DNA of 64,000 nt from NCBI GenBank assembly GCA_030754655.1, contig JASLZX010000003.1:15449-79448 (forward strand), given 5' to 3'. The stretch is from Candidatus Poseidoniia archaeon (lineage in GTDB: Archaea > Thermoplasmatota > Poseidoniia > MGIII > CG-Epi1). Positions within the stretch are counted from its first letter, which is position 1. Each line of letters begins with the position of its first letter. A program made the translations under genes and the position numbers. Below, one piece after another: positions 4,396 to 49,765 of the stretch. A model generated the notes under the pieces. It made no database searches, was not told where the DNA came from, and was given only the letters and a program-made list of their open reading frames with translations.

Positions 4396-5516
4396 TGCGG
4401 ATTCTCGAAGTAACGCCCTACTTCCACCCCCACTACGGTGGTGTCGAGTCGCACGTGCTAGGGCTGTCGATGCACCTGCAACAGCGCGGCCACACCGTCG
4501 AGGTCGTCACTTCACGCTACGCGCGCATGCCAGAGCAGGAGACGGTGCGTGGCTTGCCAGTGAACCGGGTGACGCAATGGCTGAACCTGTTCAACACCCC
4601 GGTCGCCCCCGGTTTTGGCGGGCACATCGCCGCGACCGAGGCAGATGTGGTGCATGTCCACTCGCCACCCCCTTTCACCGAGCTGTTCGCCGCGCGTGGC
4701 GCGGCGCGGGCGGGGAAGCCACTAGTCATCACCTACCACTGCGACCTGGAACTGCGCGGCCGGCTCGGCTCGCTGATGGTGCGCGGCTACCAGCGCTATG
4801 CTGGGAAGCGCCCGCTGCAAGCCGCGAAGCGCATTATCTCGACTACTGAAAGCTACGCCGCCACTTCGCGCGCGCTCTGGAACCAGGAGGTCGAGGTAGT
4901 GCCCAACGCGGTCGACACCGATCGCTTCCACCCTTCGAACAACAGCGAGCATCTCTGCAGCCGACTCTCGCCCGAAGGAGAGCCGCTGGCGCTCTTCGTC
5001 GGGCGGCTGGTGCCGCACAAGGGGGTCGACATCCTTATTCGCGCGCTATCGCGGCTCGAACGGGGGCGGCTGGTAGTGGTGGGCGACGGCCCCTACCGCG
5101 GCTGGCTCGAGAGGCTGGTGCGCAGTAAGGGGCTCGGGGAGCGGGTGGTCTTCACCGGCCCCATCGGCGACGCGTGGCTGCCCGCCTACTACGCCGCCTG
5201 CGACACCGTCGTGCTGCCGTCGACGTCGCGGCTCGAGGCGTTCGGCATCGTCGGCCTTGAAGGCATGGCGTCGGGCAAGCCACTCGTGTTGAGCGACATT
5301 CCCGGCGTGCGCGACGTCATCACCGGCGAAGAGGGGCATATCGTCGAGCCGCTCGACCCCGACGCACTCGCTGGCGCGCTGGAAAACATCTGGGATTACC
5401 CCGAGCGCGCGCGGCAGATGGGGAGGCGCGGGCGCGAACGCGCCGAGCGCGAATTCGCCTGGCCACGCGTCGCGGAGAAAATCGAGCAGGTGCTGGAAGC
5501 GGCCCTTTCGACCTAG
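4395..5516 (+). CDS. glycosyltransferase family 4 (GT4)
   Basis: MRILEVTPYFHPHYGGVESHV N-terminus and C-terminal GT4 catalytic region; ATG overlaps upstream stop (translationally coupled). Confidence 0.8.
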   Translation: MRILEVTPYFHPHYGGVESHVLGLSMHLQQRGHTVEVVTSRYARMPEQETVRGLPVNRVTQWLNLFNTPVAPGFGGHIAATEADVVHVHSPPPFTELFAARGAARAGKPLVITYHCDLELRGRLGSLMVRGYQRYAGKRPLQAAKRIISTTESYAATSRALWNQEVEVVPNAVDTDRFHPSNNSEHLCSRLSPEGEPLALFVGRLVPHKGVDILIRALSRLERGRLVVVGDGPYRGWLERLVRSKGLGERVVFTGPIGDAWLPAYYAACDTVVLPSTSRLEAFGIVGLEGMASGKPLVLSDIPGVRDVITGEEGHIVEPLDPDALAGALENIWDYPERARQMGRRGRERAEREFAWPRVAEKIEQVLEAALST

Positions 5517-7234
5517 GCCAGTTCCGTCTCGACCAATAAGCGACGCAATTCGTCGGCCGGCTTGCCCAGCGCTTCGAGCGACGCCACCTTGCCCGCCAGC
5601 GCTTCCGGGTCGGCGGCTCCGCAGCCAAGTGCGCCGTCGAATGCTTCGCTGGCGCGTTGCGCATCGCCATTTTCGAGCGCGCTCCAGCCCAACGCCAGCC
5701 ACGCCTCGAGCCGCGACGGCGCGAGCGCCGTTGCGGCTTCGGCCGCAGCCTGCGCTTCGCGGCTGCGGTCGAGCGCGTGCAGGCAACCACAGCGCGCCAG
5801 CGCCAAATCTGGGTCGTCGAGCGACAGGTACACGAGCGCCGCTTCCGGCTCGCGCGAAGCAAGGTGCAGTCCCAGCTGGCACTTTATATTTTCATCGTCA
5901 AGAAATTCAGCCTGCAAATCGGCGAGTGTTTTGCGCGCAGCATCCCACTCCTGCGCGCGCGACAGAAGCAGTCGACCGGAGCGGGAGCCGGGTTGCAGCT
6001 CGAGCGCGTTTTCGATAAGCGACAGCGCCTGCTCGTTGCGGTCCAGTTCCAGCATCGACTCCGCCAGCCGGAAGCGCGCGCGCGCCGACTCGGGATGCGC
6101 GACCAGCGCGTTGGTGTATTGCCGCGCCGCCTCGTCCAACATCCCGGCGTTGACCAGGATTTTGCCTTTCTCCATCCAGTCCAGGTCGCGCATGCGGTTG
6201 CGCGCCTGATTGTCCATCGCGCGCACCGCCTCGTCGTAGCACTGCAGTGCGTGCCGGGTCTCGCCGCGCTCGCGGCTGGTGTCGCCCAGCGCGACCCAGC
6301 ACATGACGTGCTGACCGTCGGCCGCCAGGCCAAGATTCAGCGTGCGCCGTGCCTCATCGGGGCGGCCGAGCGCCAGCAGGCTGCGCGCCAGCGCCTCGTG
6401 GTAGTCGGGGTCCCCGTCCTCGAGCTCGAGCGCCGTCTCCAAGAACTCGAGACCCTCCTCGGGGCGGCCGAGCCGCGCCAGCGCGCGGCCTTTGGCCATC
6501 CAAGCGTAGTGAAATGTGGGATCCATTTCGAGCGCCTGCTCGTGGTATAGAATGGCCTCCTCGTAGCGGTCCAAGTGATCGAGTGCATTGCCGATGTTGT
6601 TGACGGCGATGACGTATTCCGGGTCGATATCGAGTGATTTCTGGTAGAACTCGATGGAGAGCTCGTATTCGCCCTGGTTATACTGGACGTTGGCGAGATT
6701 ATTCCACGCAATCTTGTCGCGTGGGTCCAGTTCTACGGCGCGCTGATAGTAATCCTTGGCGTCCGCCAGCCGCCCCGAGAGCTGCAGCGTGTAGCCGTAG
6801 TTGTACCACGCCACCGCGTAGGTGGGGTCGGCGCGCATCGCCTCGTCGTAGCAGCGCATCGCCTCGTTCCAGCGATCGAGCATGAAGTTGGCAAAGCCGC
6901 GGTTGTTCCACGCCGGCGCGTTGCGCGGCTCCAGCTCCAGCGCGCGGCCGTACGCCTCGACTGCCTGCGCGTAGCGCTCTAGACGCTGCAGCGCGTCGCC
7001 GCGACGCACATAGTAGCGCGCGATGTCGGGCGCCAACTCGCACGCCCGCTGGTAGGCGCGCAGTGCCCGGGCGGGGTTGCGGCGCGCCATCTCGGCCATA
7101 CCGATGCTGTTGTGGAGCGAAGGGTCCTCCGGCGCCAAGTCCGCCGCCCTGCGGAAGCAGGAAATCGCCTTGCGGAATTTCCTTTCGCGGACCAGCGCCT
7201 CGCCCTGTTCCACCAACTCCGCGACGTCAGGCAT
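5513..7234 (-). CDS. TPR-repeat protein
   Basis: Repeated A-W-xN-G / A-Y-xR-A-L TPR consensus throughout 573 aa. Confidence 0.75.
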   Translation of the reverse strand: MPDVAELVEQGEALVRERKFRKAISCFRRAADLAPEDPSLHNSIGMAEMARRNPARALRAYQRACELAPDIARYYVRRGDALQRLERYAQAVEAYGRALELEPRNAPAWNNRGFANFMLDRWNEAMRCYDEAMRADPTYAVAWYNYGYTLQLSGRLADAKDYYQRAVELDPRDKIAWNNLANVQYNQGEYELSIEFYQKSLDIDPEYVIAVNNIGNALDHLDRYEEAILYHEQALEMDPTFHYAWMAKGRALARLGRPEEGLEFLETALELEDGDPDYHEALARSLLALGRPDEARRTLNLGLAADGQHVMCWVALGDTSRERGETRHALQCYDEAVRAMDNQARNRMRDLDWMEKGKILVNAGMLDEAARQYTNALVAHPESARARFRLAESMLELDRNEQALSLIENALELQPGSRSGRLLLSRAQEWDAARKTLADLQAEFLDDENIKCQLGLHLASREPEAALVYLSLDDPDLALARCGCLHALDRSREAQAAAEAATALAPSRLEAWLALGWSALENGDAQRASEAFDGALGCGAADPEALAGKVASLEALGKPADELRRLLVETELA

Positions 7235-8355
7235 CAGTTTTCCAGGATTAGCTCAATGCGCACTATCGCCTTATTGGTATCTTCCATCAACCGCCCCCAC
7301 TCGGAACCGTCGTGGTGCTCGTGGCCCGACTCGTGCGCCAGCGTGTTCTGGTAGCACTTGAGCGCCTCACGGGGACGGTCGAGCAGCTCGAGCGCGTAGC
7401 CCTTATTGTGCCACGCCCAGGCGTAATCCTCCTTCAGCTCGATAGCGCGCTCGTAGCAGGGGATGGTCTCCTCGATGCGGTTGAGCTGCCGCAGCGTCAC
7501 GCCACGGTTGTTCCACGCCGAGCGGTTTTTGGGATTCAGCTCGGTCGCGCGGGTGAACGCCTGCAGCGCCTCCTTCAGGTTCCCAACGCGGAAGAGAGCC
7601 TTGCCGAGGTTGAACCAGCAGGTGGCGTAGCGCGGGTTGGCCGCCAGCGCCCGCCGGTAGCTCTCGATGGCGCGATGGTTGTAGCCCAGCCGCGAGAGCG
7701 CAACGCCGCGGTCGTTGTAGACCACTTCGTCTTCGGCCTCGAGGCTCTGTTGCAGCGCCTCCGCCGCGGCGCCCGGCTCATCGAGCTGGTCGTGCGCCAG
7801 CCCCTTCGCCTCGAGCGCCGCCAAATCGCGCGGACGCCGGGTGAGGATGGCGTCGAAATCCTGCAGAGCGTCGTTGTAGCGCCCCATCGCGTGGAGTAGC
7901 TTGCCGCGGCGGTAGAGCAGCTCGCGATCCGGTTTCCCGCGAGCGACAGCGTCGAGCGTCGCCAACGCCGCTGTGCCGTCACCGAGTGCCTGCTGGGCGC
8001 GCGCTTTCAGGACGTGCGCTGCAACGTAGCGCGGCTTGATTTTGAGCGAGCGCTCGGCGCACGCCAGCGCTTCTGCGGGGTCGCCGAGCAGCAGCTGCGC
8101 CAGCGCGCGGTCCTTCCACATGATTTCCGAGTGCGAAACTGCATCGGGAATCTGGTCGAGCTCCGCCAGCGCCGCTGCCGGCTGCCCCGCCGCGAGGTGC
8201 ACCTTACCGAGGTCATGCTGCAACCGCTTGCTTCCCGGCTTGGCGGCCAGCGCCTTCTCGAGCGTGCGGCGGGCGCGGCGGTAGTGGCCCAGCTTGAGCT
8301 CGGCCAGCCCTTCCGCGCGCAGCTCGTCGGCATGGTTGCTGTCGTCGATAGGCAC
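7234..8355 (-). CDS. TPR-repeat protein
   Basis: TPR repeats; ORF-track N-terminal extension to 8604 looks like a shadow of the HAL gene, so a GTG start near 8355 is proposed. Confidence 0.6.
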   Translation of the reverse strand: MPIDDSNHADELRAEGLAELKLGHYRRARRTLEKALAAKPGSKRLQHDLGKVHLAAGQPAAALAELDQIPDAVSHSEIMWKDRALAQLLLGDPAEALACAERSLKIKPRYVAAHVLKARAQQALGDGTAALATLDAVARGKPDRELLYRRGKLLHAMGRYNDALQDFDAILTRRPRDLAALEAKGLAHDQLDEPGAAAEALQQSLEAEDEVVYNDRGVALSRLGYNHRAIESYRRALAANPRYATCWFNLGKALFRVGNLKEALQAFTRATELNPKNRSAWNNRGVTLRQLNRIEETIPCYERAIELKEDYAWAWHNKGYALELLDRPREALKCYQNTLAHESGHEHHDGSEWGRLMEDTNKAIVRIELILEN

Positions 8356-8428
8356 AGGTCGCCAGCGAGGGGCAGTTAAAATCCGCTGCCCCGAACAGCG
8401 CTTTATAATCCGGGTGAGGTGGCCGCGC

Positions 8429-9949
8429 GTGAAAGTCGAGCTTGACGGCGGTTCGCTCACGATTGGGCTGCTCGCGAGAGTCGCGAGCGACGGCGCGAGC
8501 GTCTCGCTGGCGCCCGCGGCGCGAAAGCGTATCGCTGCCAACCGCGCCATGCTGGAAGAGAAAATCGCCGCGCACGAGGTGATGTATGGAATCACTACCG
8601 GCATCGGTGAGTTCTCCGAGCATACGCTGACGCCCGACGAGCTGCGCGACTTCCAGCGCTTCCTGGTCTATTCGCACGCCGCTGGCATCGGCGAGCCGCT
8701 GCCGGCGGCTGTCGTGCGCGGCGCGATGTGCGGCCGCGCCAATGTCCACTGCCACGGCCACTCCGGGGGGCGGCCAGCGGTGACCGACGCGCTCGTCGGC
8801 GCGCTGAACGCGGGGGTGACGCCGGTCGCGTGCGAGAAAGGCTCGGTCGGCGCGTGCGGCGACTTGGCGCCGATGTCGCAGGTAGCGCTCTGCCTGATGG
8901 GCGAGGGCGAGGCGTTCTACCGCGACGAGCGGATGGACGCCACCGCTGCCCTGGCGAAAGCGGGACTCGAGGCGCTCGAGCTCGAGGCGCGCGACGGGCT
9001 GGCACTGATTAACGGTTCGAACGTGCTAACAGCGTGGGCGGCGCTGCTGTTGCACGACACGCAGCACTGGTTCAAGCTGCACGACATCGCCGCGGCGATG
9101 ACGCTCGAGGCGCTGCTCGCCAACCAAAAGCCATACGACGCGCGACTGCACGAACTGCGCGGCTTCCGCGGCGCGCAGGAAGTGGCGGGCAACTTGCGGA
9201 AGCTGATGGCTGACAGCCCCATCCTGGCGGCGCACGGCGAGAAGGTGCAGGACGCCTACTCGATGCGCTCGACGCCGCAAGTAGCGGGCGCACTGCGCGA
9301 CGCAGTGCGCCACGCCATCGGCGAAGTGGAGACCGAGCTGAACGGTGTCGGCGACAATCCCATATTCCTTACCGAAGAGAAGGAGGTGCTCACGGGCGCC
9401 AACTTCCAGGGCACACCGGTCGCACTGCCGCTAGAGATGGTCGCGACCGGGTTGAGCATGATTGCCGTATTGAGCGAGCGACGGCTGAACCGGCTCACCA
9501 ACCCTGCGCTCTCGGCGGGGCTGCCGCCCTTCCTGAGCGAGAAGCCGGGGCTCCACTCAGGGATGATGCTGGCGCAATACACTGCCGACGCGCTGATTGC
9601 CGAAGCGCGCATCCTGTCGCACCCCGCCGTCAACCAGTCCATCCCCGCCGCCGCCGACCAGGAGGATTTCGTCTCGATGGGGCTGACCACGATGCAGAAA
9701 GCACAGCAGATTCTCGACAACTGCTTCGGCGTGCTCGCCATTGAGATGATGGCCGCCGCGCAGGCGCTAGACCTGCGCGGCGACGAGCCGGCGGCCGGCA
9801 CCGCTGCCGCACGCGGGGTAATTCGCAAGCACGTTTCGCACCTTGACGAGGACCGGCCGCTCTACCGCGACCACAACCGGCTGGTGCCGCTGCTGCGCTC
9901 GCCCGACATCACCAGCGCGGTCGAGGCGGCCGTCGGTGAGCTGGCCTAG
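8429..9949 (+). CDS. histidine/aromatic amino-acid ammonia-lyase family protein (MIO-dependent lyase/aminomutase fold) with Ala-Cys-Gly at the MIO position
   Basis: YGITTGIGEF, GSVGACGDLAPMSQ and NGSN motifs typical of the HAL/PAL family; proposed GTG start at 8429 (VKVELDGG). Confidence 0.8.
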   Translation: MKVELDGGSLTIGLLARVASDGASVSLAPAARKRIAANRAMLEEKIAAHEVMYGITTGIGEFSEHTLTPDELRDFQRFLVYSHAAGIGEPLPAAVVRGAMCGRANVHCHGHSGGRPAVTDALVGALNAGVTPVACEKGSVGACGDLAPMSQVALCLMGEGEAFYRDERMDATAALAKAGLEALELEARDGLALINGSNVLTAWAALLLHDTQHWFKLHDIAAAMTLEALLANQKPYDARLHELRGFRGAQEVAGNLRKLMADSPILAAHGEKVQDAYSMRSTPQVAGALRDAVRHAIGEVETELNGVGDNPIFLTEEKEVLTGANFQGTPVALPLEMVATGLSMIAVLSERRLNRLTNPALSAGLPPFLSEKPGLHSGMMLAQYTADALIAEARILSHPAVNQSIPAAADQEDFVSMGLTTMQKAQQILDNCFGVLAIEMMAAAQALDLRGDEPAAGTAAARGVIRKHVSHLDEDRPLYRDHNRLVPLLRSPDITSAVEAAVGELA

Positions 9950-11292
9950 AGAGCGGCACGGACACGCGAAAGCAGCTCCACAATCTCGTCGGCCGCAATC
10001 ACCAGCGGCAGCCGGAAACGGATTGAGTTGGCGCCGGACTTGAGCGCCATCACCTTCTGCGCTGCCAGCGAGGCCATCAGCGCGTCGCGCTCCCCCGCCG
10101 ACGGCAGCGTAAAAGCGATGAGGCTGCCGACACCGCGCACGTTGCTGAAGCCGCCGGTCTCGCGCGCCAGTGTGCGCAGCCCAGCCAGCAATTCGGCGCC
10201 CCGCACGGCGGCGTTCTCGCCGAGGCCTTCGGCCTCAATGATGTCGAGGAAACGCTGGCAGCGCACCATATCCGTCAGGTTGCCGCCGAAAGTGGAGTTG
10301 ATGCGGCCCGACATCTGAAAGACGTTGTCGGCAACTTCATCGATGCGCTCGGAGCAGTAGATGCCGCAAACCTGCGTCTTCTTGCCGAAGGCGACGATAT
10401 CGGGCGCGACGTCGTGGTGCTGCCAGAGCCACGGCTTGCCCGACCCCCAGAAGCCGGTCTGCACTTCGTCGTAAATCAGTAGCGCTTCGCGCGAGTCGGC
10501 GTAGCCGCGCAATGCCGCGAAGAATTCGGGGCGGAAGTGGTTGTCGCCGCCTTCGCCCTGCAGTGGCTCGAGCAGGATGGCGGCGATGCGGTCACCGTGC
10601 TGCGCGAAGGCGGCCTCGATTTCGGCGCAAGCGCGTGCTTCCTCGGCGGCGATGTCGTTGGCGACCTCGCCGTCGGGGCCGAACTCGATAGTCGGGTTGT
10701 GGACCCGCGGCCAGTCGAACTTGGGGAAGAGCCCGATTTTGTCGGGCACGGTATTGGTCAGCGAGAGGGTGTAGCCGCTGCGGCCGTGGAATGCATCGCG
10801 CAGGTGCAGGATTACGATGTCGTTTACGTCGGCCCCAAAGTCGGTGCGCCCCAGCTTGCGCGCCTTCCAGTCGAACGCCGTCTTGAGCGCGTTTTCGACC
10901 GCCAGCGCGCCGCCGGCGACCCAGAAGTGATACGGGAAGCCCGAGGGAGTGGCGCGGGTCGCGAACGCTTCGACGAAGCCGGCCATCTCCCGGGTGTAAA
11001 GGTCGGAATTAGCGGGGTTAGCGGTGGCGACCGCGCGCACTTTCGCGAGGAATTCCGGAGTCTGTAACATCGGGTGGTTGTAGCCCACCGGCCACGAGGC
11101 GAAGCAAGTGAAGCAGTCGAGGAATTCCGACTCGGTGCGCGCGTCGTAGAGCCAGGCGCCGTGCGACTGCTCCAAGTCTAGCACGACGTCGTAGCCGTCA
11201 ACCAGCTGGTGCCGCCGCAAAACTTCGTGGACGCTGGTCGCCGCGATACCGTGCGCGGCGGGTGTAGCGGTTCCGGACGACGACGCTTCCAT
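9946..11292 (-). CDS. class-III PLP-dependent aminotransferase (lysine/ornithine/DABA aminotransferase-like)
   Basis: Class-III aminotransferase fold features; FGKKTQVCG lysine region; about 450 aa. Confidence 0.7.
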   Translation of the reverse strand: MEASSSGTATPAAHGIAATSVHEVLRRHQLVDGYDVVLDLEQSHGAWLYDARTESEFLDCFTCFASWPVGYNHPMLQTPEFLAKVRAVATANPANSDLYTREMAGFVEAFATRATPSGFPYHFWVAGGALAVENALKTAFDWKARKLGRTDFGADVNDIVILHLRDAFHGRSGYTLSLTNTVPDKIGLFPKFDWPRVHNPTIEFGPDGEVANDIAAEEARACAEIEAAFAQHGDRIAAILLEPLQGEGGDNHFRPEFFAALRGYADSREALLIYDEVQTGFWGSGKPWLWQHHDVAPDIVAFGKKTQVCGIYCSERIDEVADNVFQMSGRINSTFGGNLTDMVRCQRFLDIIEAEGLGENAAVRGAELLAGLRTLARETGGFSNVRGVGSLIAFTLPSAGERDALMASLAAQKVMALKSGANSIRFRLPLVIAADEIVELLSRVRAAL

Positions 11293-11323
11293 TGCGACCG
11301 GCGCGGTGGAGGCCTGCTGCGGT

Positions 11324-11719
11324 TTAAGCCTGACGGCTGCGCAGCTTGCGCTCCAGCGCCGGCAGCTCCTCGACGCAGCTGATATCGCCGCGCGAAATCA
11401 GCGCCAGTTCGCGCCGCAGTTCCAGGTCGGGCTGCAGGTCGCTGGCGCGACCGAGTTCGGCAAGCTTGCGCGCCAGCCGGCCGCCGGTGCGGTCCCAGTC
11501 GGTCAGGATGGCGAAGCGGCCGCGCGACCCCAGTTGCGCAGCCAACCCCTCGACGGTCTGCAGCACAGAGTTTCCACTGTTGAGCGAAACCAGCTGCAGC
11601 TCGCAGAAGCGGGCCAGCGCGGCGATGTCGCGCTGACCCTCTATGATTACCGGTCCCGGGAATTCCTCAATTTTTTCGAGCCAGCGTTCCAGCGCCTCGA
11701 ACCGTTCGGCGTCGTTCAA
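11324..11719 (-). CDS. small Toprim-domain protein
   Basis: ILTDWDRTGGRLARKL resembles the Toprim DxD acidic motif; 131 aa. Confidence 0.5.
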   Translation of the reverse strand: MNDAERFEALERWLEKIEEFPGPVIIEGQRDIAALARFCELQLVSLNSGNSVLQTVEGLAAQLGSRGRFAILTDWDRTGGRLARKLAELGRASDLQPDLELRRELALISRGDISCVEELPALERKLRSRQA

Positions 11720-12030
11720 CGCAGCGCTCCCGCCAGGCGATTGGTCGCCTCATCGTACGGTAGCGGCAGTCGCACCTGCTTTGAGCGCGAGCGGTGGCCG
11801 CGCAGCAGTTCGGCGCTGCCGGGTTCGAGCCTTAGTTCGCGCTCGAGCAGCCTCAGCAGGGCACGGTTAGCGCGCCCGCTACTGGCGGGCGTGCTGACCC
11901 TGACCGTCAGCGCCCCGCGCCACTCGTCGAATTCCCCGAGCGCATCGCGGCTGGCGCCGGGGGCCACGTGCAGCGTGAGTAGCGTCCTGTCCTCACTCGC
12001 CTGGAGCGCAGCCCCGGCCATTGGCTCCAA
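11716..12030 (-). CDS. DUF167/YggU-family protein
   Basis: Size of about 100 aa and a LTxxV...GxANxALlxxLa pattern typical of DUF167; TTG/ATG start ambiguity. Confidence 0.55.
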   Translation of the reverse strand: MEPMAGAALQASEDRTLLTLHVAPGASRDALGEFDEWRGALTVRVSTPASSGRANRALLRLLERELRLEPGSAELLRGHRSRSKQVRLPLPYDEATNRLAGALR

Positions 12031-12783
12031 ATGGGCCGCGTCTATTTAGCCGGGCAGGAATGGGTCGTGGTGATTCAGGTCCAGGGGCTAACGCGCTACT
12101 ACGGAAAGTTGTGCGCGGTGCGCGACATCAGCTTCGAGATCCACCGCGGTGAAGTCTTCGGGCTGCTCGGGAGCAACGGCGCCGGGAAGTCAACGACCAT
12201 CAAGATGCTCTGCGGGCTGCTCAAGCCGACGCGCGGTAGCGTGAGCGTCGCGGGGGTGGACCTGGCGCGCAAACCGCTACAGGCGAAGGCGATGCTGGGG
12301 TATCTCCCTGAAAATCCCGTTCTGTACGACCGGCTGACCGGGATGGAAATGCTCGAGCTGGTCGGGGCGCTGCGCAAGCTCTCGCCCAAGCTGCTGCGGC
12401 AGCGTGCGAAATACTACAGCGAAGCGCTAGGCCTTGGCGGGCAGATGCAGTCCGAGGTCGGCACCTACTCAAAGGGAATGCGGCAGAAGCTGGCGATTGC
12501 GATGACGCTGGTGCATGACCCCGAAGTGGTGCTGCTCGACGAGCCGGCGGCCGGGCTCGACCCGCGCTATACGCGGCTGCTGAAGGAGTGGGTGCGCAAC
12601 CTCTCGCAGGGCGGCCATACAGTGCTGCTCTCGACTCACATCACTGAGATGGCCTCATCGCTCTGCGACCGTATTGCAGTCATCGACCATGGGCGGCTGC
12701 TCTCGGTCGGGACCGTACCGGAGCTGCTCAGCTCGACCTCGAGCCCCACGCTCGAGGACGCGTTCATCCGGCTTGTGGGCTAG
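12031..12783 (+). CDS. ABC transporter ATP-binding protein
   Basis: Walker A GSNGAGKST, ABC signature, Walker B LLDEP; no adjacent permease. Confidence 0.85.
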   Translation: MGRVYLAGQEWVVVIQVQGLTRYYGKLCAVRDISFEIHRGEVFGLLGSNGAGKSTTIKMLCGLLKPTRGSVSVAGVDLARKPLQAKAMLGYLPENPVLYDRLTGMEMLELVGALRKLSPKLLRQRAKYYSEALGLGGQMQSEVGTYSKGMRQKLAIAMTLVHDPEVVLLDEPAAGLDPRYTRLLKEWVRNLSQGGHTVLLSTHITEMASSLCDRIAVIDHGRLLSVGTVPELLSSTSSPTLEDAFIRLVG

Positions 12784-13331
12784 AACTCGAGCGCCGGATA
12801 TTCCCGCGCGGCTGCGCGCAGGATGCGCTGCGCCCACGCCAGCTTGCGTCGCTTGAGCCGACCGCGACTGCGTCCCGAGTAGGGGCCCACGGCATCGAAA
12901 CGGAAGCCTGCCAACCGCACGCGGCGCGCGCCCATGGCGAGCGCCGCCAGCACAGCGCGGTCACCATCGGTGAAGCCACCCCAGCAAGCCACCCCCACGG
13001 CAGGATGCCCCGCGGTCAGCGCCGCCGGCTGCAGCCGCGGCAGCCATTCGCCAAGCGCCGCCAGATTGTCGCCGTGACCGTGGATTACCAGCGCCGCGTC
13101 GCCGGCGAGGGCCCAGTGCAAGTCGTCGCGGTAGCCGTCCAGATCGCTCACCACCAGCGCCGGCACGCGCCCGCGCTCGCGGCAGGCACGCACCGCACCG
13201 TCGGCGGCGACCAGCGCGCCACGCGGAAGTGCTTCGCCCGGGCGCAGCCCCGCACCGACGATGACCACGCTGCGGCCCCGGAATTGCGGCAGCTCACCTG
13301 ACGGGCGGCCGAGTCGTTGCAGCAACCGCAA
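12780..13331 (-). CDS. DUF115-family protein (MptE-like archaeal 6-hydroxymethylpterin diphosphokinase candidate)
   Basis: About 180 aa, GxG nucleotide-binding-like start, VSDLDG acidic motif; family assignment tentative. Confidence 0.4.
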   Translation of the reverse strand: MRLLQRLGRPSGELPQFRGRSVVIVGAGLRPGEALPRGALVAADGAVRACRERGRVPALVVSDLDGYRDDLHWALAGDAALVIHGHGDNLAALGEWLPRLQPAALTAGHPAVGVACWGGFTDGDRAVLAALAMGARRVRLAGFRFDAVGPYSGRSRGRLKRRKLAWAQRILRAAAREYPALEF

Positions 13332-13408: not shown

Positions 13409-16400
13409 TCAGAGCGGGTTGCCGTCTTCGTTGCAGGGAACTTCTTCGCCCGAGTCGGGGTCGATGTAGTAGAAGGAACCGTCCTCGTCCTCGTAGATTT
13501 CGACCTCATACTCTTCTTCGTCGTCGCCTACTTCGTCGTCGTAGTCGTCAGCGAAGCCGAAGTCGTCGTCAGAGGAAACCGCGGCACCGCTAGCACTCAG
13601 GAGGTCCATCAGACTGGTCTCCTCCCGCGCCTCCTCGCGCGCAGTGCGGACAGACTCGATAGCCTCAATCTTACGCTGGGTTGACTCGTATGCCTTGGTA
13701 ATCTCGGTAAGCTTGGAGAACTGCTCATCGCGCTCCATCTTGAGCACGTACGCCAGCTGTTCCTCAATCTGCCCCAGTTCGGTGCGGGTGTCGACCAGTC
13801 TGGTCAGCGTACCGTGGAACCGCTCGGCGAGCAATTCCATGTCGGGGTCGGCCATGTCAAGCTCGAGCTGTTCCGCTGCCGCGGTTTCGGCTGCCTCGGC
13901 AGCCTCCAGTTCGGCTAGCCGCTCGGTGGCGGCAATCTGCTGGGCCTTGACCAGTATTTCGTTGAAGGCCGAAAGGTGGGCCTCCAGCTTGGTCGCGACG
14001 CGAGATGCGTCGTAAGCTGCTACCTCGAGCAGTTCCTCGCGACCCTTGGAGGTCTCAAGGCTCTGTTCGACTTCTGCCAGACGTGCTCTTTCTTGCTTGT
14101 TCATGCTTTCACCAGTAAATCCGCTCGTGCGGACGTTATACGCTGCGGCGGCCATTAGCAGACCCAAAACCAGTCCGCCCACCAGAACGATGAAGCTGCG
14201 GTTCCAGTTGTCTGCCACCATTACACTCTGGGCTTCCGCCACCACTACTTCCTGAGCCACAGTGGTAGTCACCGCACCAGAGTTGTCAACTGCGGTGACC
14301 TGCACCTGATAGGTGCCGGGCGCCGCATAGGCGTGCTTCAGGTTCAGCGTGCTCTGATCAGTCAGGTCACTGCCACTGAAGGAAATTTGCGAGCCATCGC
14401 CGAAGTCGACCACCAACATCGCGATGCTGCCGTCGCCATCGGTCGGGACTGCCAGGACAAACTCGACTGTGTGCTCCTCGACCACGCTGACGGTGTTGCC
14501 GTCAATCGTGATGCCCTCATCCACACTCACCGAGGGTGCCGGGACCAAGGGTGCGCTGTTAGCGGCAGTTACCGGCGCGCTAAAGCTCGTGACCTGTCCG
14601 AGGCTGTCGGTTGCGACTAACGAGATGGTGTAGTCGCCTGCCATATCGTAGGTGTGGTCCTGCGAGGCGCCGCCGTCAACAATGCTGGCTCCGTCACCGA
14701 AGTCCCAGTCAATCGTCAGTCCCGCTGCGGCGTCGCTCAGCGCAAAGATGTGCGCGGAGCCGGCCATGGTGCCGCCCGTGCTGAGCGACCAGCCGGAGAT
14801 GTCCTGCGGCAGGTTGGGGGTAATCGAGATGGTCTGCGAAGCGCCAGTACCGTCAATCGACGGCGTGACTGTGAAACCGGCGGAGCTCGCCGCGGTCGCG
14901 CCAGCCGGGACCATGACGGTCAACAGGACCGTCTGGAAACCGCTCTTGTCGATGCGGAAGCTGGTTGTCGAGAAACGCAGGTTGTCGTGGCCCGCAGTGA
15001 CGACTATGGTGTAGTCGGTCGCGACGCTGCCGGTATTGGTCACTGTAACAACCGTGGTCGCCGAAGTTCCGGGGTTGAGCTGGAAGCTGTCATCAGCCGC
15101 GCTCACGCCTGCGCTCCGCGCATCACTGGAGATGTCGATTGTCGCGCTTGCGCTGTCATCGTCAGTTGCAGTCGATATAGAGTAACTGCCACCAGCCGGA
15201 GTATCTTCGGGGACATTAATCCAGACGCGGAAGTCGAAGCTGGCGCCGGCTTCGAGTATGTCGGTGGAGGTGGTGTTCAGCACTGCCCAGCCGTTAGCCT
15301 CACTGTTGCCGCTGATACCAAAGGAGTAGGTTGCGTCACCGTTACCGGTGTTGGTGACGGTGCCGGAAATCTGGAAGGAGTCGCCCGGATACGCTGCGGA
15401 AACCGTGCCGAGCGTTATGCTCGAGCCAGTCACCAGCCCGGCGCTGCTGTCGGCCGAGTCGCTGTCGGAAGCGCCGCCGGTCGCGGTGAGCGTTACCGTG
15501 TCGCCCGCACCGTGCGCTGCGCCTGCGGGGACGTCGTGCGTGACCGTAACTAGCCGCACCTCGCCCATGCCGAGGCTCATCCCGCTGGAGGAAGCAGATG
15601 AGGACCAGCTTCCACTGGTTGAAATTACGAACGTGTTATCGTAGTTACCGGTGTTCTGCACCGTGAAGGTGTGGATCGTGGAACTGCCCGGTGCGCCTTC
15701 CTGCGTGCTGGAAACTGCGGTGACTGCGACGTCCTGCACTAGCCCGACTGAATAAATCATGCTGTGCGCATCGGTCGCGGTGCCGTCGTTCTGCGACGCG
15801 ATATCGACGTCAATCTGGTTCGGAACACCGTAGGCCAAGAAGGGGACGCTGAGCGTCAGGTCGAAGGTGGCTGAGCTGTCGTAGGCTACGTCAACCGTCG
15901 CCGGGAAGCTCAGGTCCCAGCTCGCGAAGTTGCTGGCACCGATGGTGTAGGTGTCATCGGCGTTGCCGCTGTTGGTAATCGTGAAGGTGATTGTGCGGTC
16001 GCCCGGCGCGCCCGAGGTATCTGCCGGATCGTCTAGGTCTGCGCCGCCGACATAGTCGACGAAGAAGCTCGCTGTCCCGGCGTCGCCGGTTGCGGGCGCA
16101 CCGACACTGTCGGTGGCACTGAAGGTAACAGTGCGAGTGCCACCACGGTCAATGAGGTCTAACAGGTCAAGCGTGGCTGAATAGGTACCATCACTGTTGT
16201 CGTTGAGCGTGAGGGTTCCATAGTGCTGGAGGTCGGCCGAAACTGTAAGTGAATCCCCATCGTCCTCGTTAATGTCACTGGCGCTGGCAGTGAAGGTGTA
16301 GGTGTCACCGGCACGTTCTACAGTCCCGTTGGCCGTGAAGGCCGGCGCGTCGTTGACCGCAATCGAGCCGCCCGAAAGCTGTGCGGCGTCGTTGGCACCA

Positions 16401-17884
16401 TTGTTGGCGTCGAAAGCCACGGAATGGGTGCCCCAAGCCATGGTGCCGGTGTAGGCATATTCGGCGCCAGCGGCGTCAGCCGGGCTCTCCGAGGCGTTGG
16501 TGCGTGAGAGCGAGAAGAAATTGCTGCCGACCGTCACGCTGATGGTTGAGGCGTTGGTGCCGTTGTACTCGTGGTAGCGGACCGAGAAGTTGAAGTTGTC
16601 GTTCTCGCCGCCGCTGGCTGGCGAAACTGCCGCGTCGGTCAGCCACGGAATATCGGTGCGGACCCAGACTGAGCCGGCGACCGCGTTGGAATCATCCATG
16701 CTGTCGTTCGAACTGGCAGCGAACACCGTCTTACCAGCTGCGAATACCTGGCTGTGCTCGTACTGCTTACCGTCGGTGTAGTCACCATCGTTTGGGTCGG
16801 AGGCGAACATCGGTACTGCGGTGCCGTCACAGCCATCGCTCAGGTCGTCGTCGCCGACGCAGAGCGTTATCGCACTGGGTGCCTGGTCGTTAGCGTCGGT
16901 ATAGGTGACGGTAACCGTGGCGGGGTCTACTGGTAGTGGTACCGTTGAGGGTGTTGCCGTAATAGAGCTCAGGACCGGTTCGTCATTAACGCGAGGGCCA
17001 TCGTAGGTATCGGAGGTTGCGTCGTCCTCCCCGTCAGAACTGGTGAAGTAGTAGGTGTGCATCCCGAGGCCAATATCTCCCGCTAGGGTGAAGGCGTACT
17101 CGTAATTCTCGCCATTGGTGTAATCACCATCGTTGCTGCTGGAGGAAGTCATTGGGTATCCGGTATCATCGACAAAGAGGAGTACCTCACTGGGAGCGTC
17201 GCCGTCAAGGTCGGTGTAGGTGACCTGGAAACCCACCGTGTCACTCGCGGAGATAGGCCAGTTGGCTTCTCCCGGGGAAACTTGGCCGTCCGTGAGAGTC
17301 GGGGCGCGGTTCTGCTGGACCAGCGGGCGGCTCAGGTCCCATGCTTCCTCGTCTCCGACCTGACACTCCTCCGTGCCATCGAGCCAGATACAGCTCATGC
17401 TGGCTATGTAGAAGGTGACGTCCCCATGGTAGTCTGAGGGTGCCCAAACAAACTCCCACGACAAAGATTCGTCTCCGTCATCTTCGGAGTTGCTCATGAT
17501 GTAGTCGTAACCATCCGAAGCGGTAACGAGGGTTATATCGCCCACCTCAATCGAGAAATTGCCGACTGAGTCGCCATTACCGTTGATAACCACCATCTCA
17601 AAACCGAACTTGTCGTGACCGCTGCCACTCACAGTTACGTCGATGTCTACGTCCTCGCCGGGCACGTACTCTGCAACGCTGAGCGTTACGTCCAGCGAAC
17701 TCTCACCATCGTTGGGATTAGCGTCGGTGTGGCATGACGTGCAGTCATTATCACCTGGCGCGCTGGAATAGCCTGGGTCAATATCTCCGCCCTGATGTCC
17801 CTGCGCATAACCTGCAGCGATGACGGCTATCACCGTCACAATCAGGATACCTGCCAATAGTTGTTCCGGCCGACGTGTCAGCAT
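13409..17884 (-). CDS. giant type-I membrane surface protein with multiple PKD/Ig-like domains, single TM, cytoplasmic coiled-coil and poly-acidic C-terminal tail
   Basis: N-terminal signal anchor (MLTRRPEQLLAGILIVTVIAVIAAG), PKD signatures (WDFGDG...HTY, VDFGDGS...HAY), TM LVGGLVLGLLMAAAAY, then heptad-like E/A/L-rich segment and DDDFGFADDYDDEVGDDEEEYEVEIYEDEDG tail. Confidence 0.8.
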   Translation of the reverse strand: MLTRRPEQLLAGILIVTVIAVIAAGYAQGHQGGDIDPGYSSAPGDNDCTSCHTDANPNDGESSLDVTLSVAEYVPGEDVDIDVTVSGSGHDKFGFEMVVINGNGDSVGNFSIEVGDITLVTASDGYDYIMSNSEDDGDESLSWEFVWAPSDYHGDVTFYIASMSCIWLDGTEECQVGDEEAWDLSRPLVQQNRAPTLTDGQVSPGEANWPISASDTVGFQVTYTDLDGDAPSEVLLFVDDTGYPMTSSSSNDGDYTNGENYEYAFTLAGDIGLGMHTYYFTSSDGEDDATSDTYDGPRVNDEPVLSSITATPSTVPLPVDPATVTVTYTDANDQAPSAITLCVGDDDLSDGCDGTAVPMFASDPNDGDYTDGKQYEHSQVFAAGKTVFAASSNDSMDDSNAVAGSVWVRTDIPWLTDAAVSPASGGENDNFNFSVRYHEYNGTNASTISVTVGSNFFSLSRTNASESPADAAGAEYAYTGTMAWGTHSVAFDANNGANDAAQLSGGSIAVNDAPAFTANGTVERAGDTYTFTASASDINEDDGDSLTVSADLQHYGTLTLNDNSDGTYSATLDLLDLIDRGGTRTVTFSATDSVGAPATGDAGTASFFVDYVGGADLDDPADTSGAPGDRTITFTITNSGNADDTYTIGASNFASWDLSFPATVDVAYDSSATFDLTLSVPFLAYGVPNQIDVDIASQNDGTATDAHSMIYSVGLVQDVAVTAVSSTQEGAPGSSTIHTFTVQNTGNYDNTFVISTSGSWSSSASSSGMSLGMGEVRLVTVTHDVPAGAAHGAGDTVTLTATGGASDSDSADSSAGLVTGSSITLGTVSAAYPGDSFQISGTVTNTGNGDATYSFGISGNSEANGWAVLNTTSTDILEAGASFDFRVWINVPEDTPAGGSYSISTATDDDSASATIDISSDARSAGVSAADDSFQLNPGTSATTVVTVTNTGSVATDYTIVVTAGHDNLRFSTTSFRIDKSGFQTVLLTVMVPAGATAASSAGFTVTPSIDGTGASQTISITPNLPQDISGWSLSTGGTMAGSAHIFALSDAAAGLTIDWDFGDGASIVDGGASQDHTYDMAGDYTISLVATDSLGQVTSFSAPVTAANSAPLVPAPSVSVDEGITIDGNTVSVVEEHTVEFVLAVPTDGDGSIAMLVVDFGDGSQISFSGSDLTDQSTLNLKHAYAAPGTYQVQVTAVDNSGAVTTTVAQEVVVAEAQSVMVADNWNRSFIVLVGGLVLGLLMAAAAYNVRTSGFTGESMNKQERARLAEVEQSLETSKGREELLEVAAYDASRVATKLEAHLSAFNEILVKAQQIAATERLAELEAAEAAETAAAEQLELDMADPDMELLAERFHGTLTRLVDTRTELGQIEEQLAYVLKMERDEQFSKLTEITKAYESTQRKIEAIESVRTAREEAREETSLMDLLSASGAAVSSDDDFGFADDYDDEVGDDEEEYEVEIYEDEDGSFYYIDPDSGEEVPCNEDGNPL

Positions 17885-17965
17885 ATTTACACCTTTTTTG
17901 CGTGAGACTGAAGTCCTCCGTAATGGGCGGACTGACCTCTCTCGTAGCGCCTTCATACCCAAGGA

Positions 17966-34633: not shown

Positions 34634-37600
34634 ATGATGATTTTCATGCGCAAGACCCTCAAATATTCGTTCGCCGTACTAGTGTTTGCATTCCTGCTTT
34701 CACTGGCTGCCTCCGAGGCTTCCGGTGAAGTGGACCTGACGATTACCTCCTTGGACTACACTAATGACTTCGATACCGGAGATCCTGTTACTATCGTCCA
34801 GAGCGGGAAGGATGCTGACACTGTATACAAGTATAATTTTTACGACGATGACAACGATGACTGCGATGAACAGAGGTGTCTCCCCGAGAATTGGTATGCG
34901 AAGAATTTTGACGACGCAATCTGGAGTTCAGGAGCCGCACCCTTCGGCAATAATGACCAGGCCGGCGCCAGTCCGGGCACGATATGGCAAACAGAGGAGG
35001 ATCTGAATGACCACATCGTAATTCGCCATCACTTTACTTACAGTAATGAGTATGATGCAATCAGTGCTACCCTGAACCTGGCCTACAATAACTACTATGT
35101 CGCCTACCTGAACGGGAACCTTATTCGAGACTGCTATTCTTACCAAAACAATAATAATTGTTACCAAGGCGACACTGCATACTGGAACAATGAACTAACC
35201 TATAACGGAGGCTCCCAGTCAGGGCCTAATCAAGATTGGCTAGTCGAAGGTGACAACGTACTTGCCATACTAGGAAGAGACAGCACTTGGGGTGGGGACC
35301 CTAATCAGTGGCTTGATGTCGAGTTCGTGGTCAACGTCCAGTCCTGGAGGGAAAAACCGATTATCCTCGGTGATGACGTGTGGCTGAGGGTGATTACTTC
35401 CAACGTAGGAAACGAAACCGCTGAGAACTTCAACGTCACGCTGGCGGTCGAGGGTGAGGAGCTGGGGAATGCTACCATAACGGAACTGGCACCTAATGCT
35501 ACGGCTGAAAGTGTGTTCTACTGGACTCCGGAGGCGCTCGGAGACTTTAATCTTGTGGCTTTTGCTGATGCTGGGCAAGATGTTGGAGAAAGCGATGAGG
35601 ACAACAATACCCTGAATCGCACAATACACATTGGGTTCTATGCGTACAATATTGCTGTGGAATCAAACCATGTTGTAGGAAATGCTACAGAGATTTTCAG
35701 GTACAATCTAACTGTCACTAACGAAGGCGACGTGGAAGACAATTTCACCCTCTCAGCCTCAGGTATTTTCTACAATTGGGATTGGACCCTTACGCCCAAC
35801 GTACTTCACCTGCAACCCGGAGGGAGCGGGAATGCGACTCTTGAAATAGTTCCGGACAGAGAGACATTGGCTGGGAATTACTCCGTGTTCATGAGTGCCA
35901 GGTCTCAGTACTATAGTGAATTCAGAGAGAACGTAGTCCTGAGTGGCCGGGATAACGAGACAGAATGGTGGTGGGCCCATTCCAATAGCAGTAACACGCG
36001 ACTCTACTATTGCACGGACAATGATGAACCCGACGACCCAGATTATGAATGCGATATTAGCTGGACCGAACTAGACTTCGACTATGATGACAACTGGACC
36101 CTTGACCCGGCACCCTTCGGAGATACCGACATAGGCAATGTAGACAACAACACGGTCTGGCAAGGCAACAGTTACGCCTACTTCCGCCATATATTCACTA
36201 TCGATAATATTTCGGCTTACGAAGGGGGCAGCCTGAGCCTGAATACTGCGGCAAACAACTACGGAACCTACTACCTGAACAGCCAGATAGTGTTCAATGA
36301 CATGCGGCAGGGTCAGGGCCACACCGCGAATTACTGGAACGATGAAACCCTGTTTGGACCCGAACTCTTGCAGGAAGGCGAAAATATCCTGGCATCAGTA
36401 GTCCGGGAAACTGGAAACACCCAGTGGTTTGATGAGGAAGTCGTGGCTGTTTTCTCCCAATCCGCAGCCTGGGATTTCGTTCCGCTACCACTAGAACTGG
36501 AAATGGAGATACTGCCGACCTATAATTTCTCGCTCTCGGCCCCCATTAGCAACAAGCAGATTCCGGACGACACTAACTACACCTTTGAAGTCTGGATTAC
36601 CAATCTAGGAAACATCGGAGATACCTATGAGATGGTAGTCACACTAAACGACACCTACAACTTTACAATCCTTAACTACACCACTACTGAAATGCACAGC
36701 GTTGTTGGAGAAGGTGCAATAGGTTACATTAATGTCACCATGCGCGACCTTATCGAGGAAGACGCGCGTGGCGGTTTCAATGTTACTGTAATTTCGCGCA
36801 ACTCGACCGAACAACTCACTAAATGGATTGAGCTGACTGCAATGCTCTATATCGTGCCTGACACACTGCGTCCTGTTACGGAGGCTATAACAGATCCACT
36901 CGTCAACTCGACCTCGTTCCAGGTAGGGTGGGAAGTAGCCGAATGGTATCGCCTCGACGATGTGCTCGGCAACGACACCTTGGTGGTGACCGTCGAATAC
37001 CGGCGCGACAACGGCAGCGGCAGCTGGGAGGAGTGGCAAGTGTGGCAGGTCTTCACGGCCGAGGACGAGGACAATCCGCTCGGCAGCGGGAGCGGAACCT
37101 TCTCGCTGGGCGAGGACGGTCGCAGCTTCCAGTTCCGGGCAACCGGCCTCGACGATGACGGGCTGTTGGAGGACAAGACGGGACGCAATGACACCGAGAC
37201 GCTGGTCGACACAACCCCGCCAACGGTCGCCGTTTCCAGCGACCCAGCTGGCGCGCTGCTCAGCACCAACTACCTCGAGCTGAGCTGGGAGAGCAGCGCC
37301 AGCGACCTTGCGGGCTACGACCTGCAACATTCGTTTGACGGCGGAGCGTGGGAAACGCTGCTGGCCGACTCGCTCGCGACGCGCTACGACTACTACGTCA
37401 CGGCCGACGGCAGCCACGCCTTCCGCGTCATCGCGAGCGATGACGCGGGCAACCGTGACGTGCCCGACACGCCCCAAATCAGCATGGTCATCGACACCGC
37501 AGCCCCGACGGGGAGGCTCGCGCCGCTGGAGCCGCTGACCGGCGCGCTAGCGGTGACGTTGCTGCCATCGCAGGATAACGCCAGCAGCTACAACCTGAGC

Positions 37601-45371: not shown

Positions 45372-46556
45372 TCAGCCGATAGTACCAGGACTGATGACAG
45401 ATGTGGCGATTCCCATCACTTCGAAGACCAGCCAGCCGATAAAGAGCAACATCGAGGAACGGTTGAACGCCGAGTAGAGCTTGCCAGTGGCCATGAAACC
45501 GGCCGCCATGCCGTTGCCAATGCTCTGGACAATTATGCTGTAGAGGAATATGGTCGAAATCCAGACTTCGTTCAGGTTGCGCACCTGCAGGTTACCGATG
45601 GACATACCCTCTCCGCCGGTGGCAGAGGCGGAATCGGCAATCGCCGGGACGAAAGTGCTGGCCAAGACGAGGATAATAATCAGGTAGACCATAAACGAAA
45701 CGTATACCACCATCATATAGCTGGTAACTTCCTGCGCTCGCTCGGTCTCGAGCGCCTTGATTTCCCTGGCGTCATAAGAGGCGGCGAGCAGGATGTCCGA
45801 AATGCGGCCTCCCGCGCGGTTGGCCTCATCGACCATGCGGACCGCCCGCGACACGATGGGCGACCGGACCCGTTCGGTAAACATCCCCAGCACTTCACTG
45901 AAGGAGATACCCCACGAAATCTGGGTTGACATCTTGTGTACTTCGTCGTTGAGGTTGCCATATTCGCCCCGCGCCAGCGTCTGGATAGCGACGGTCATGC
46001 TGAGACCGCCCTTCCAGTACTCGGCAAGGTCGCGCAGGAAGTCGGGGAATTTCTCCTCAACCCGCGTCCGGAGCTTGTCCTCACGCCAGCCCCAGATGCC
46101 ATAAGGCAGCATCAGCGCAATCAGTGCAAAAATGTAGTAGTCAAGGGTCGAAATTTCAGGATAGTATCGATACCAGGTTGTAGCTTCTACATCCTCGTCA
46201 ATACCGTTAATCAACGGGTCAGCGTCACGACTCTCGTTCTTGGCAATCGAGGGGAGGCCATACATGTAGGGCGTAATCGTGAAGGGGCCATCGTTCATGG
46301 CCTCCGGATTGTCGAACTGCGAATCACCGTCGAAATCGGTGACGACCGTTGTCAGGTCGGCCTGGTGATTCAACTGCCCCAGCGCGATGAACGCGCCGCC
46401 CATCATCAGCGAGAGGAAGACGACGACATAGATCGTAATGTCAGTCTTGCCCTCCTTCACCTCGATCCACTTCAGCGCCATGCGGTAGGTCATCCAGCGC
46501 CGCTTCTTGCCGGTCCGCTCATCGCGGTAGACCCGTTTCTCGAGATTACTTGCCAT
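45372..46556 (-). CDS. TadC/FlaJ-like type II secretion F-domain membrane protein
   Basis: T2SSF-like cytoplasmic domain (LSMTVAIQTLARGEYGNL) between TM helices. Confidence 0.7.
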   Translation of the reverse strand: MASNLEKRVYRDERTGKKRRWMTYRMALKWIEVKEGKTDITIYVVVFLSLMMGGAFIALGQLNHQADLTTVVTDFDGDSQFDNPEAMNDGPFTITPYMYGLPSIAKNESRDADPLINGIDEDVEATTWYRYYPEISTLDYYIFALIALMLPYGIWGWREDKLRTRVEEKFPDFLRDLAEYWKGGLSMTVAIQTLARGEYGNLNDEVHKMSTQISWGISFSEVLGMFTERVRSPIVSRAVRMVDEANRAGGRISDILLAASYDAREIKALETERAQEVTSYMMVVYVSFMVYLIIILVLASTFVPAIADSASATGGEGMSIGNLQVRNLNEVWISTIFLYSIIVQSIGNGMAAGFMATGKLYSAFNRSSMLLFIGWLVFEVMGIATSVISPGTIG

Positions 46557-47497
46557 TAATCAATTGCGACCTCATTGCTCAGTGCGAGGAAAATATAGGC
46601 GAAGAAAATCTGGATTATCGGGAACATCAGGAAGACCATCATGTAGAGGTGCTCTTCCTCCAGTTTCATCCCGGACCCGGAAACCCAGAAGGTGATCACG
46701 GCCATAATCATCGCGAAAATTGGAAGTGCCACCGCCATCACCACATACGCTTCCGCAAAGAGTGCCATCTGCTGGATGACACTCTTGACATGCACCCGGT
46801 TGGCCTGCGCGTAGTATTCTGCCCGGTTCAGGAAGTAGAGCTTCAGGTTACCGCCCGAGGTAAGCGTGCCGACAATTCCCTGCAAGAACTCGGCAAATCG
46901 TTCCGAGGGCGACCGTTCGACGGCCTCCTTGAGCGTCGTCACCAAGTCACGAGCCATGAACTCAACAGAGTGGTAAACCCAAGCCGCATCCTTCGAAATC
47001 TCACCGTAAATATCCTCACTACGAGCGAGCGATTTGAAAATCATCGCCGGCGTTGCATTAGCCGCCGCCATCGCTGCTGTGTAGCTGGCGGCGAAGGGCA
47101 GCTTGCGGTCCATGTCCGTGGCGCGCGAGCCAACTCTCAGCCCGGGCTCGAGCCAGTTCACCATCGCTATCAGCAGCGGCAGTACGATAACCAGCACCAG
47201 TGCTAGGATAGCCTGTATGAATTCCGAGACGATGATCGGCTCACCGTCTGGACCAGTCATTTGCGCTAGGAATGGAACGCCGACGACGATGAAAGCAAAC
47301 ACCAGCGCCAGCCCAGCGATGAAAGTAGCGAAAACCTGCATTGCGGCGTGGGCAACGTAGCCTTCGGGCAGCAGCGGAATGCGCGCCTTCACGAGCTGTT
47401 GCTTGAGCCCGAAGGAATTCTTGGTCAGCAAGCGACCCAGCCAGCCGAAAAGGAGCAGGCTGAGTGACTGCAGGCCGCTTAGAACCACCGGTGCCAC
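46556..47497 (-). CDS. TadB/FlaJ-like type II secretion F-domain membrane protein
   Basis: Second T2SSF-like domain protein adjacent to the first; split platform as in bacterial TadB/TadC. Confidence 0.7.
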   Translation of the reverse strand: MAPVVLSGLQSLSLLLFGWLGRLLTKNSFGLKQQLVKARIPLLPEGYVAHAAMQVFATFIAGLALVFAFIVVGVPFLAQMTGPDGEPIIVSEFIQAILALVLVIVLPLLIAMVNWLEPGLRVGSRATDMDRKLPFAASYTAAMAAANATPAMIFKSLARSEDIYGEISKDAAWVYHSVEFMARDLVTTLKEAVERSPSERFAEFLQGIVGTLTSGGNLKLYFLNRAEYYAQANRVHVKSVIQQMALFAEAYVVMAVALPIFAMIMAVITFWVSGSGMKLEEEHLYMMVFLMFPIIQIFFAYIFLALSNEVAID

Positions 47498-49755: not shown

Positions 49756-49765
49756 CCTTACTCGT

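Follow-up and report, generated by a model that had tools for sequence, protein, structure and literature searches.

Histidine ammonia-lyase (HAL, or HutH) of Pseudomonas putida (structures 1b8f and 1gkm; EC 4.3.1.3) is the closest described relative of the enzyme considered here, and it acts through the electrophile 4-methylideneimidazole-5-one (MIO), whose methylidene derives from the side chain of Ser143, the central residue of an Ala-Ser-Gly triad. Langer, Lieber and Retey (1994, Biochemistry 33:14034) reportedly observed that the S143C mutant of this enzyme was post-translationally converted to a fully active form. In accounts of the natural enzymes, the central serine of the triad is treated as invariant or strictly conserved (PMC3903478, PMC9002059). 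Here we describe a hutH-like gene whose product carries Ala-Cys-Gly (ACG) at this place, found in a 64,000-nucleotide stretch of DNA from a Candidatus Poseidoniia archaeon (assembly GCA_030754655.1, contig JASLZX010000003.1, positions 15,449 to 79,448), hereafter the window. We put at roughly 70% the probability that this gene encodes a functional, MIO-dependent HAL of a distinct and widespread Cys-type subfamily, that its MIO forms from cysteine by loss of H2S, and that the lysine aminotransferase gene beside it is independent.

A cysteine at the MIO serine position

The features of the gene, in window coordinates, are as follows.

8429-9949, + strand: Cys-type histidine ammonia-lyase gene (hutH-like), 506 amino acids, GTG start, TAG stop, with a PF00221 match
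8840-8881, + strand: MIO-loop motif GSVGACGDLAPMSQ, with the subfamily signature P-M-x-Q and not P-L-x-H
8855-8857, + strand: codon TGC of Cys143, from which the MIO methylidene carbon is predicted to arise (Ser143 in canonical HALs)
8402-8409, + strand: TATA-like box TTTATAAT, about 24 nucleotides upstream of the GTG start

The open reading frame (ORF) matched the PF00221 Lyase_aromatic profile end to end (E 1.7e-163; residues 10-466 on profile positions 1-465 of 466), and its length agrees with that of its homologues (506-507 amino acids). Among the 39 PDB sequences that matched at E < 1e-20, the best phmmer match was P. putida HAL (1gkm; E 1e-97, 40.6% identity over 495 residues), in which kgsvgaSgdlap is covered without gaps by kgsvgaCgdlap of the window protein. 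Because the kgsvga stretch aligns gap-free, the cysteine occupies the position of the MIO-forming Ser143, and MAFFT placed it in the same column; that it might lie off the MIO position could therefore be rejected. The triad is thus Ala-Cys-Gly and does not conform to X-Ser-Gly with an invariant central serine, a departure that, given the reported S143C mutant, does not preclude an MIO. The catalytic and imidazole-binding residues of the P. putida enzyme are otherwise conserved in the MAFFT alignment (Y53, S82-H83, D145, N195, Q277, Y280, R283, F329, M382 and E414). In all 120 of the closest homologues, which are 68-99% identical and labelled in the database as Poseidoniia, MGIII or Thermoplasmatota, the triad is likewise ACG; this rules out a sequencing error or a chance motif and confirms that the cysteine is real. 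These results bear out the earlier note on this DNA, which had proposed from the sequence an enzyme of the HAL and phenylalanine ammonia-lyase (PAL) family with cysteine in place of the MIO serine.

Profile scores and selectivity residues both point to HAL within this superfamily. The window protein passed the cut-off of the NCBIfam HAL subfamily model PRK09367 (539.5 against 524) and fell far below those of the aminomutase models (TIGR03832, 369.5 against 501; TIGR04475, 321.7 against 800; TIGR04473, 153.7 against 1250) and of the PAL and tyrosine ammonia-lyase (TAL) models (TIGR01226, 229 against 519; FlxA TAL, 308 against 700; BagA, 222 against 1000). Residues 82 and 83 are Ser-His and are accompanied by E414; His83 and Glu414 are the established HAL-specific substrate residues of the family. 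The Phe-Leu or His-Leu switch of PAL and TAL enzymes is absent. The MIO enzymes SgTAM (2ohy), AdmH (3unv), RsTAL (2o6y) and AvPAL (2nyn) share the superfamily and the cofactor chemistry with the window protein but resemble it more weakly (E 1e-85 to 1e-47). An aminomutase, PAL or TAL identity is rejected on these scores and residues, which contradict the aminomutase role that the earlier note had offered as one possibility. Database names for these proteins, whose sequences are already public, are inconsistent, being variously HAL, PAL or 'aromatic amino acid ammonia-lyase'.

The TTTATAAT box, read from the sequence, hints that the gene may be transcribed from an archaeal promoter of its own, perhaps without a leader.

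A Cys-type subfamily and its place in hut clusters

To place this triad within the family, we surveyed the 150 representative clusters (50% identity) nearest to the window HAL in a library of 1.84 billion proteins. ASG was found in 127 clusters, SSG in 10 and ACG in 6; TSG and CSG had a single cluster each, and SVG and SLG variants also occurred. ACG is thus a minority of about 4% among HAL-like members of the family. A different proportion emerged closer to the window gene when GTDB species genomes were scanned. Here the window HAL belongs to a tight group (59-69% identity) common to Poseidoniia and a wide range of bacterial phyla (Chloroflexota/Anaerolineales, Acidobacteriota, Ignavibacteriota, Actinomycetota and Elusimicrobiota among them), which is set apart from canonical HALs by L149M, H151Q, N412D and H416F, often with S82N, and all of whose members retain Ser/Asn82-His83 and Glu414. 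Within it cysteine is the majority state, with ACG at 42 genome loci and ASG at 30. The description of a natural cysteine form as uncommon, made in the earlier note, therefore holds over the whole family (6 of about 150 clusters) but not within the subfamily.

When canonical HALs were used to root a rough neighbour-joining tree, every basal branch of the subfamily was of the Cys type, and parsimony required at least 11 changes between serine and cysteine; on these sequences, cysteine is apparently the ancestral state. ACG and ASG alternate among close relatives, and the serine codons of the subfamily come from both the AGY and TCN classes, each a single nucleotide away from the TGY codons of cysteine. 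This alternation, the repeated switches and the two codon classes form the pattern expected if serine and cysteine were functionally interchangeable at this position, and taken with the membership of these genes in hut operons the exchange suggests that they may be.

ACG also occurs in two lineages beyond the subfamily (P0191/P0192 and P0200). In two bacterial loci, L009 (6457-8004 and 8001-9536) and L010, a pair of tandem HAL genes stands within a hutU-hutI operon, and the second of them (P0192) combines Ala-Cys-Gly with Q277R and Y280L, an independent origin of ACG with altered catalytic residues. Within the subfamily, the most divergent Cys-type member (P0121, 48-49% identity), in L011, overlaps the start of a gene for an AMP-binding, acyl-CoA ligase-like protein (5368-6897 and 6897-8225), an arrangement that recalls pairs of TAL and coumarate-CoA ligase.

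The genomic setting of orthologues in relatives is the decisive evidence on function and argues for a role in ordinary histidine degradation. Poseidoniia Cys-type orthologues that are 65-67% identical to the window HAL, and that match it residue for residue at the 17 positions inspected, directly adjoin hutU in seven loci (L018, L019, L020, L021, L098, L115 and L116), of which L018, L020 and L098 also contain hutI and L098 and L115 contain FtcD-type genes. The general form of the Poseidoniia cluster is FtcD, FTCD_C, class-I/II aminotransferase, hutU, HAL and DUF835, followed at some distance by hutI, and in Elusimicrobia (L064) a Cys-type HAL, hutU and hutI stand in a row. The partner genes scored, listed below, passed the cut-offs of their NCBIfam equivalog models.

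hutU in L018, L020 and L064: scores 411, 826 and 956 (cut-off 375)
hutI in L018 and L064: scores 299 and 401 (cut-off 298)
FtcD in L099, a Ser-type cluster: score 276 (cut-off 221)

The same hutU-HAL-DUF835 slot is filled by a canonical ASG HAL, 34-38% identical to the window protein, in L094-L097, L099, L100, L102 and about 25 metagenome loci of Marine Group II (MGII). These canonical enzymes (such as L099 6267-7832 and L094 12034-13581) come from the same class of organisms and share their slot with the Cys-type genes of L018-L021 and L098, but have the P-L-x-H signature and pass the hutH equivalog (557 against 539). That the two types replace each other in one operon slot argues for equivalent function. 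It was proposed in the earlier note that the window enzyme serves a non-canonical pathway; the evidence contradicts that proposal, since orthologues alike at every inspected position lie next to hutU, in clusters that also contain hutI and in some cases FtcD. The MGII hut clusters as a whole (L094-L103, L018-L021, L098 and L104-L118) encode a clustered tetrahydrofolate (THF)-dependent pathway of FtcD, FTCD_C, class-I/II aminotransferase, hutU, HAL, DUF835, an EF-hand protein and hutI, and their HAL slot shows apparent in-place gene displacement between the Ser type and the Cys type. A literature search for hut genes in Marine Groups II and III (MGIII) found nothing relevant in the library searched.

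Proposed maturation and competing explanations

The window enzyme agrees with P. putida HutH in fold, length, register of the MIO loop and catalytic residues, and its orthologues adjoin hutU and hutI, whereas it differs by Cys143, by the four subfamily substitutions and by the lack of a hut cluster in the window. With the engineered S143C enzyme it has the whole triad in common, and that mutant reportedly shows that cysteine can act as precursor of the dehydroalanine or MIO methylidene; the mutant is a laboratory point change, whereas the subfamily has cysteine naturally, as its majority and apparently ancestral state, in both Archaea and Bacteria. On this model, the Ala142-Cys143-Gly144 loop would cyclise autocatalytically after folding, and H2S would be eliminated from Cys143, in place of water from Ser143, to give the exocyclic methylidene of MIO. 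The mature electrophile would then be the same as in canonical HAL, and the enzyme would convert L-histidine to trans-urocanate and NH3. Ordinary HAL catalysis with a Cys-derived MIO is the most likely reading because the hut context, the slot exchange, the model scores and the reported S143C precedent all converge on it, and on this reading we infer that the genome also encodes the downstream hut enzymes.

A literature search for a natural Ala-Cys-Gly MIO triad found no description of one in the library searched, and natural Cys-type MIO precursors appear to be undescribed so far. The new element would be cysteine as a natural and widespread precursor residue, in a large HAL subfamily, at a position called invariant in the two accounts cited above (PMC3903478, PMC9002059); neither the mature cofactor nor the reaction is expected to differ from the usual, and the 1994 mutant anticipated the use of cysteine. 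If this is correct, the known routes of autocatalytic MIO biogenesis would extend to natural elimination of H2S, 30 years after that mutant, the inconsistent naming of these proteins by annotation pipelines would be accounted for, and a naturally occurring collection of Cys-precursor MIO enzymes would be available to enzyme engineers. In terms of archaeal ecology, the clusters support histidine catabolism by the THF-dependent FtcD route in MGII archaea. Practical consequences are modest, because no difference is expected in the mature cofactor.

A variant of this account, which we hold only tentatively and consider improbable as a whole, is that the genes descend from an ancient Cys-HAL lineage in which serine re-evolved many times, that the choice of precursor may matter functionally, and that the enzyme may act outside the hut pathway as a stand-alone deaminase. 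If so, that choice could bear on the rate or completeness of cofactor maturation, on sensitivity to redox state or oxygen, or on a substrate range tied to L149M, H151Q, N412D and H416F.

Several observations weigh against a plain hut role for the window gene. The closest solved structure is only 40.6% identical to it, none of the subfamily members is characterised, and the hutH equivalog TIGR01225 was narrowly missed (512.1 against a cut-off of 539.15); on the other side, and in support of the main reading, the Cys-type HAL of hut cluster L098 (12081-13601) showed the same pattern, with scores very close to those of the window protein on both HAL models (539.8 on PRK09367 and 514.4 on TIGR01225). 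No hutU, hutI, FtcD, DUF835 or second HAL was detected by tblastn and Pfam within the 64 kb of the window, as had been supposed for its immediate surroundings from the sequence, and in the window lineage and its syntenic relatives the gene has housekeeping surroundings (GatE-glmU-GT4-TPR-TPR-HAL-aminotransferase) and no hut cluster. Every sampled Poseidoniia hutU locus already has an adjoining HAL, so genomes arranged like the window may either carry a canonical HAL as well or be without a hut cluster. Bacterial members of the subfamily stand beside hutU in only 5 of about 70 loci. Finally, a canonical HAL with a Ser-Ser-Gly triad and a Cys-type HAL are tandem neighbours in L060, a metagenome-assembled genome (MAG) of Melioribacteraceae (6256-7812 and 8222-9745), and do not stand beside hutU; this would fit some divergence in function and hints that one type is not always redundant with the other.

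The absence of hut genes within 64 kb, the HAL at every sampled hutU locus, the L060 tandem and the rarity of bacterial hutU linkage also support the leading rival, namely that the protein is a stand-alone or second lyase of the HAL family outside the route from histidine to glutamate in this organism. One form of this rival is an orphan histidine deaminase, for scavenging nitrogen or for making urocanate as an end product; another is a lyase whose substrate is a modified imidazole amino acid, the hut cluster being left to a canonical Ser-type HutH if the genome has one. The position of the four subfamily substitutions, near the MIO loop and the E414 segment, favours this rival, and a weak hint in the same direction is that no high-GC NCBI hutU was among the approximately 175 Poseidoniia hutU clusters listed, although the window HAL cluster has at least 6 NCBI accessions. 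The hutU surveys comprised the best 120 matches each, which tempers that hint. Moreover, hutH is unlinked from hutU in many organisms, so the lack of linkage says little, and the HAL-specific H83 and E414 are retained, while orthologues identical at the 17 inspected positions hold the hutH slot of hut clusters. We consider this rival unlikely; the small share of belief that we leave to a stand-alone or functionally shifted paralogue reflects the L060 tandem, the rarity of bacterial hutU linkage and the presence of a HAL at every sampled hutU locus.

One hut cluster of comparable composition, L099 (65% GC, with a canonical HAL), was considered as the window's own, which would have given this lineage two HALs, and rejected. 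Its tetranucleotide distance to the window is 0.041, compared with 0.010-0.020 within the window and 0.012 between the window and L015, a contig of the same species, so L099 represents a different lineage.

A second rival takes up the idea, put forward in the earlier note, that the HAL-like enzyme is a lyase or aminomutase partnered in a non-canonical pathway by the aminotransferase encoded next to it.

9946-11292, - strand: L-lysine 6-transaminase (LAT), 448 amino acids, a class-III aminotransferase convergent with HAL

The identity of this neighbour as a lysine-type class-III aminotransferase was borne out by the TIGR03251 L-lysine 6-transaminase equivalog (544.6 against a cut-off of 520.8) and by a full-length match to Mycobacterium tuberculosis Lat (2cin; E 6e-126, residues 18-448). 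The window LAT differs from its mycobacterial counterpart in its archaeal host and in having no adjacent lrp regulator, unlike the LAT of the Acidobacteriota locus L040, which is paired with an Lrp/AsnC regulator as in mycobacteria. LAT adjoins HAL only in the window, in L015 and L017, and in two Acidobacteriota loci (L040 and L070), and syntenic relatives also have a class-III aminotransferase in this slot. However, the stop codons of HAL and LAT overlap in the palindrome CTAG (9946-9949), and because the genes meet tail to tail they are not co-transcribed. In L001, L004, L014 and L016 the slot holds an unrelated class-III aminotransferase, which in L001 is 23% identical to LAT and does not match the LAT model, the other three loci being grouped with L001 by ORF clustering. 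The adjacency is not specific either, since synteny with relatives whose GC content is 34-37% extends over a whole 20-kb neighbourhood (GatE, GlmU, GT4, two TPR genes, HAL, aminotransferase, ABC, MptE and a PKD giant protein) and the pair is inherited with the rest. Urocanate chemistry and lysine epsilon-transamination have no intermediate in common, the LAT of L040 has its regulator for a partner, and the aminomutase scores are far too low (369 against 501 and 322 against 800). A conserved functional pair is thereby rejected, a shared pathway is very improbable, and LAT is probably functionally unrelated to HAL, an independent gene adjacent by chance. Clustering of the flanking ORFs in the approximately 70 bacterial loci likewise revealed no recurrent neighbour, no family occurring in more than 12 of them.

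The slot enzyme itself, encoded at 11521-13041 (- strand) in L001 and also in L004, L014 and L016, is a 506-residue class-III aminotransferase with an N-terminal extension, and in L001 its best NCBIfam match is to an acetylornithine transaminase model at 116 bits (cut-off 372).

The weakest rival, that cysteine blocks MIO formation and leaves a dead or MIO-less HAL homologue with another role, can point to the central serine being treated in the literature as strictly conserved, to MIO-less relatives such as ergothionase (6s7j) and to the SVG and SLG variants, but is the least probable of all given that the S143C mutant reportedly matures to full activity, that all residues for cyclisation and catalysis are conserved, that the Cys form is retained across phyla and within hut operons, and that cysteine and serine have switched repeatedly with no other change in the active site.

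Source of the window and its other genes

The window has a GC content of about 65% and contains archaeal markers, namely GatE, an archaeal-type GlmU and type IV pilus-like genes. L015, from a MAG of Candidatus Thalassarchaeaceae archaeon CB27_Tmax.1 (CAUZDT01), encodes a HAL and an aminotransferase that are 98% and 97% identical to the window copies, and because it matches the window in both genes and in tetranucleotide signature, the source, judged by sequence, can be assigned to a high-GC, Thalassarchaeaceae-like member of the Poseidoniia (Marine Group II/III).

Over window positions 1-20500, the order GatE-GlmU-GT4-TPR-TPR-HAL-aminotransferase-ABC-MptE-PKD giant-WD40-PKD is kept in L001, L004, L014, L016 and L017, despite a very large shift in GC content, from 65% in the window to only 34-37% in the relatives, and a protein identity of about 68%. 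Immediately beyond LAT, at 11306-12049 (+ strand), lies a 247-codon ORF with no family match; it may be spurious, because relatives annotate a 137-residue gene on the - strand at the syntenic place (11324-11719).

Further along, a cluster at 45372-51191 (- strand) encodes two T2SSF-domain membrane proteins, a 758-residue T2SSE-type ATPase with a PilB3 C-terminal domain and a DUF7289 protein, and appears to be an archaeal type IV pilus or a system akin to the archaellum. Two predicted surface proteins of giant size, at 13409-17962 (- strand) and 34634-38617 (+ strand), lie in local dips of GC content (55-61% against about 66%); one has 1517 residues with PKD, Ig and FixG_C-like domains, and the other 1327 residues with a CARDB domain.

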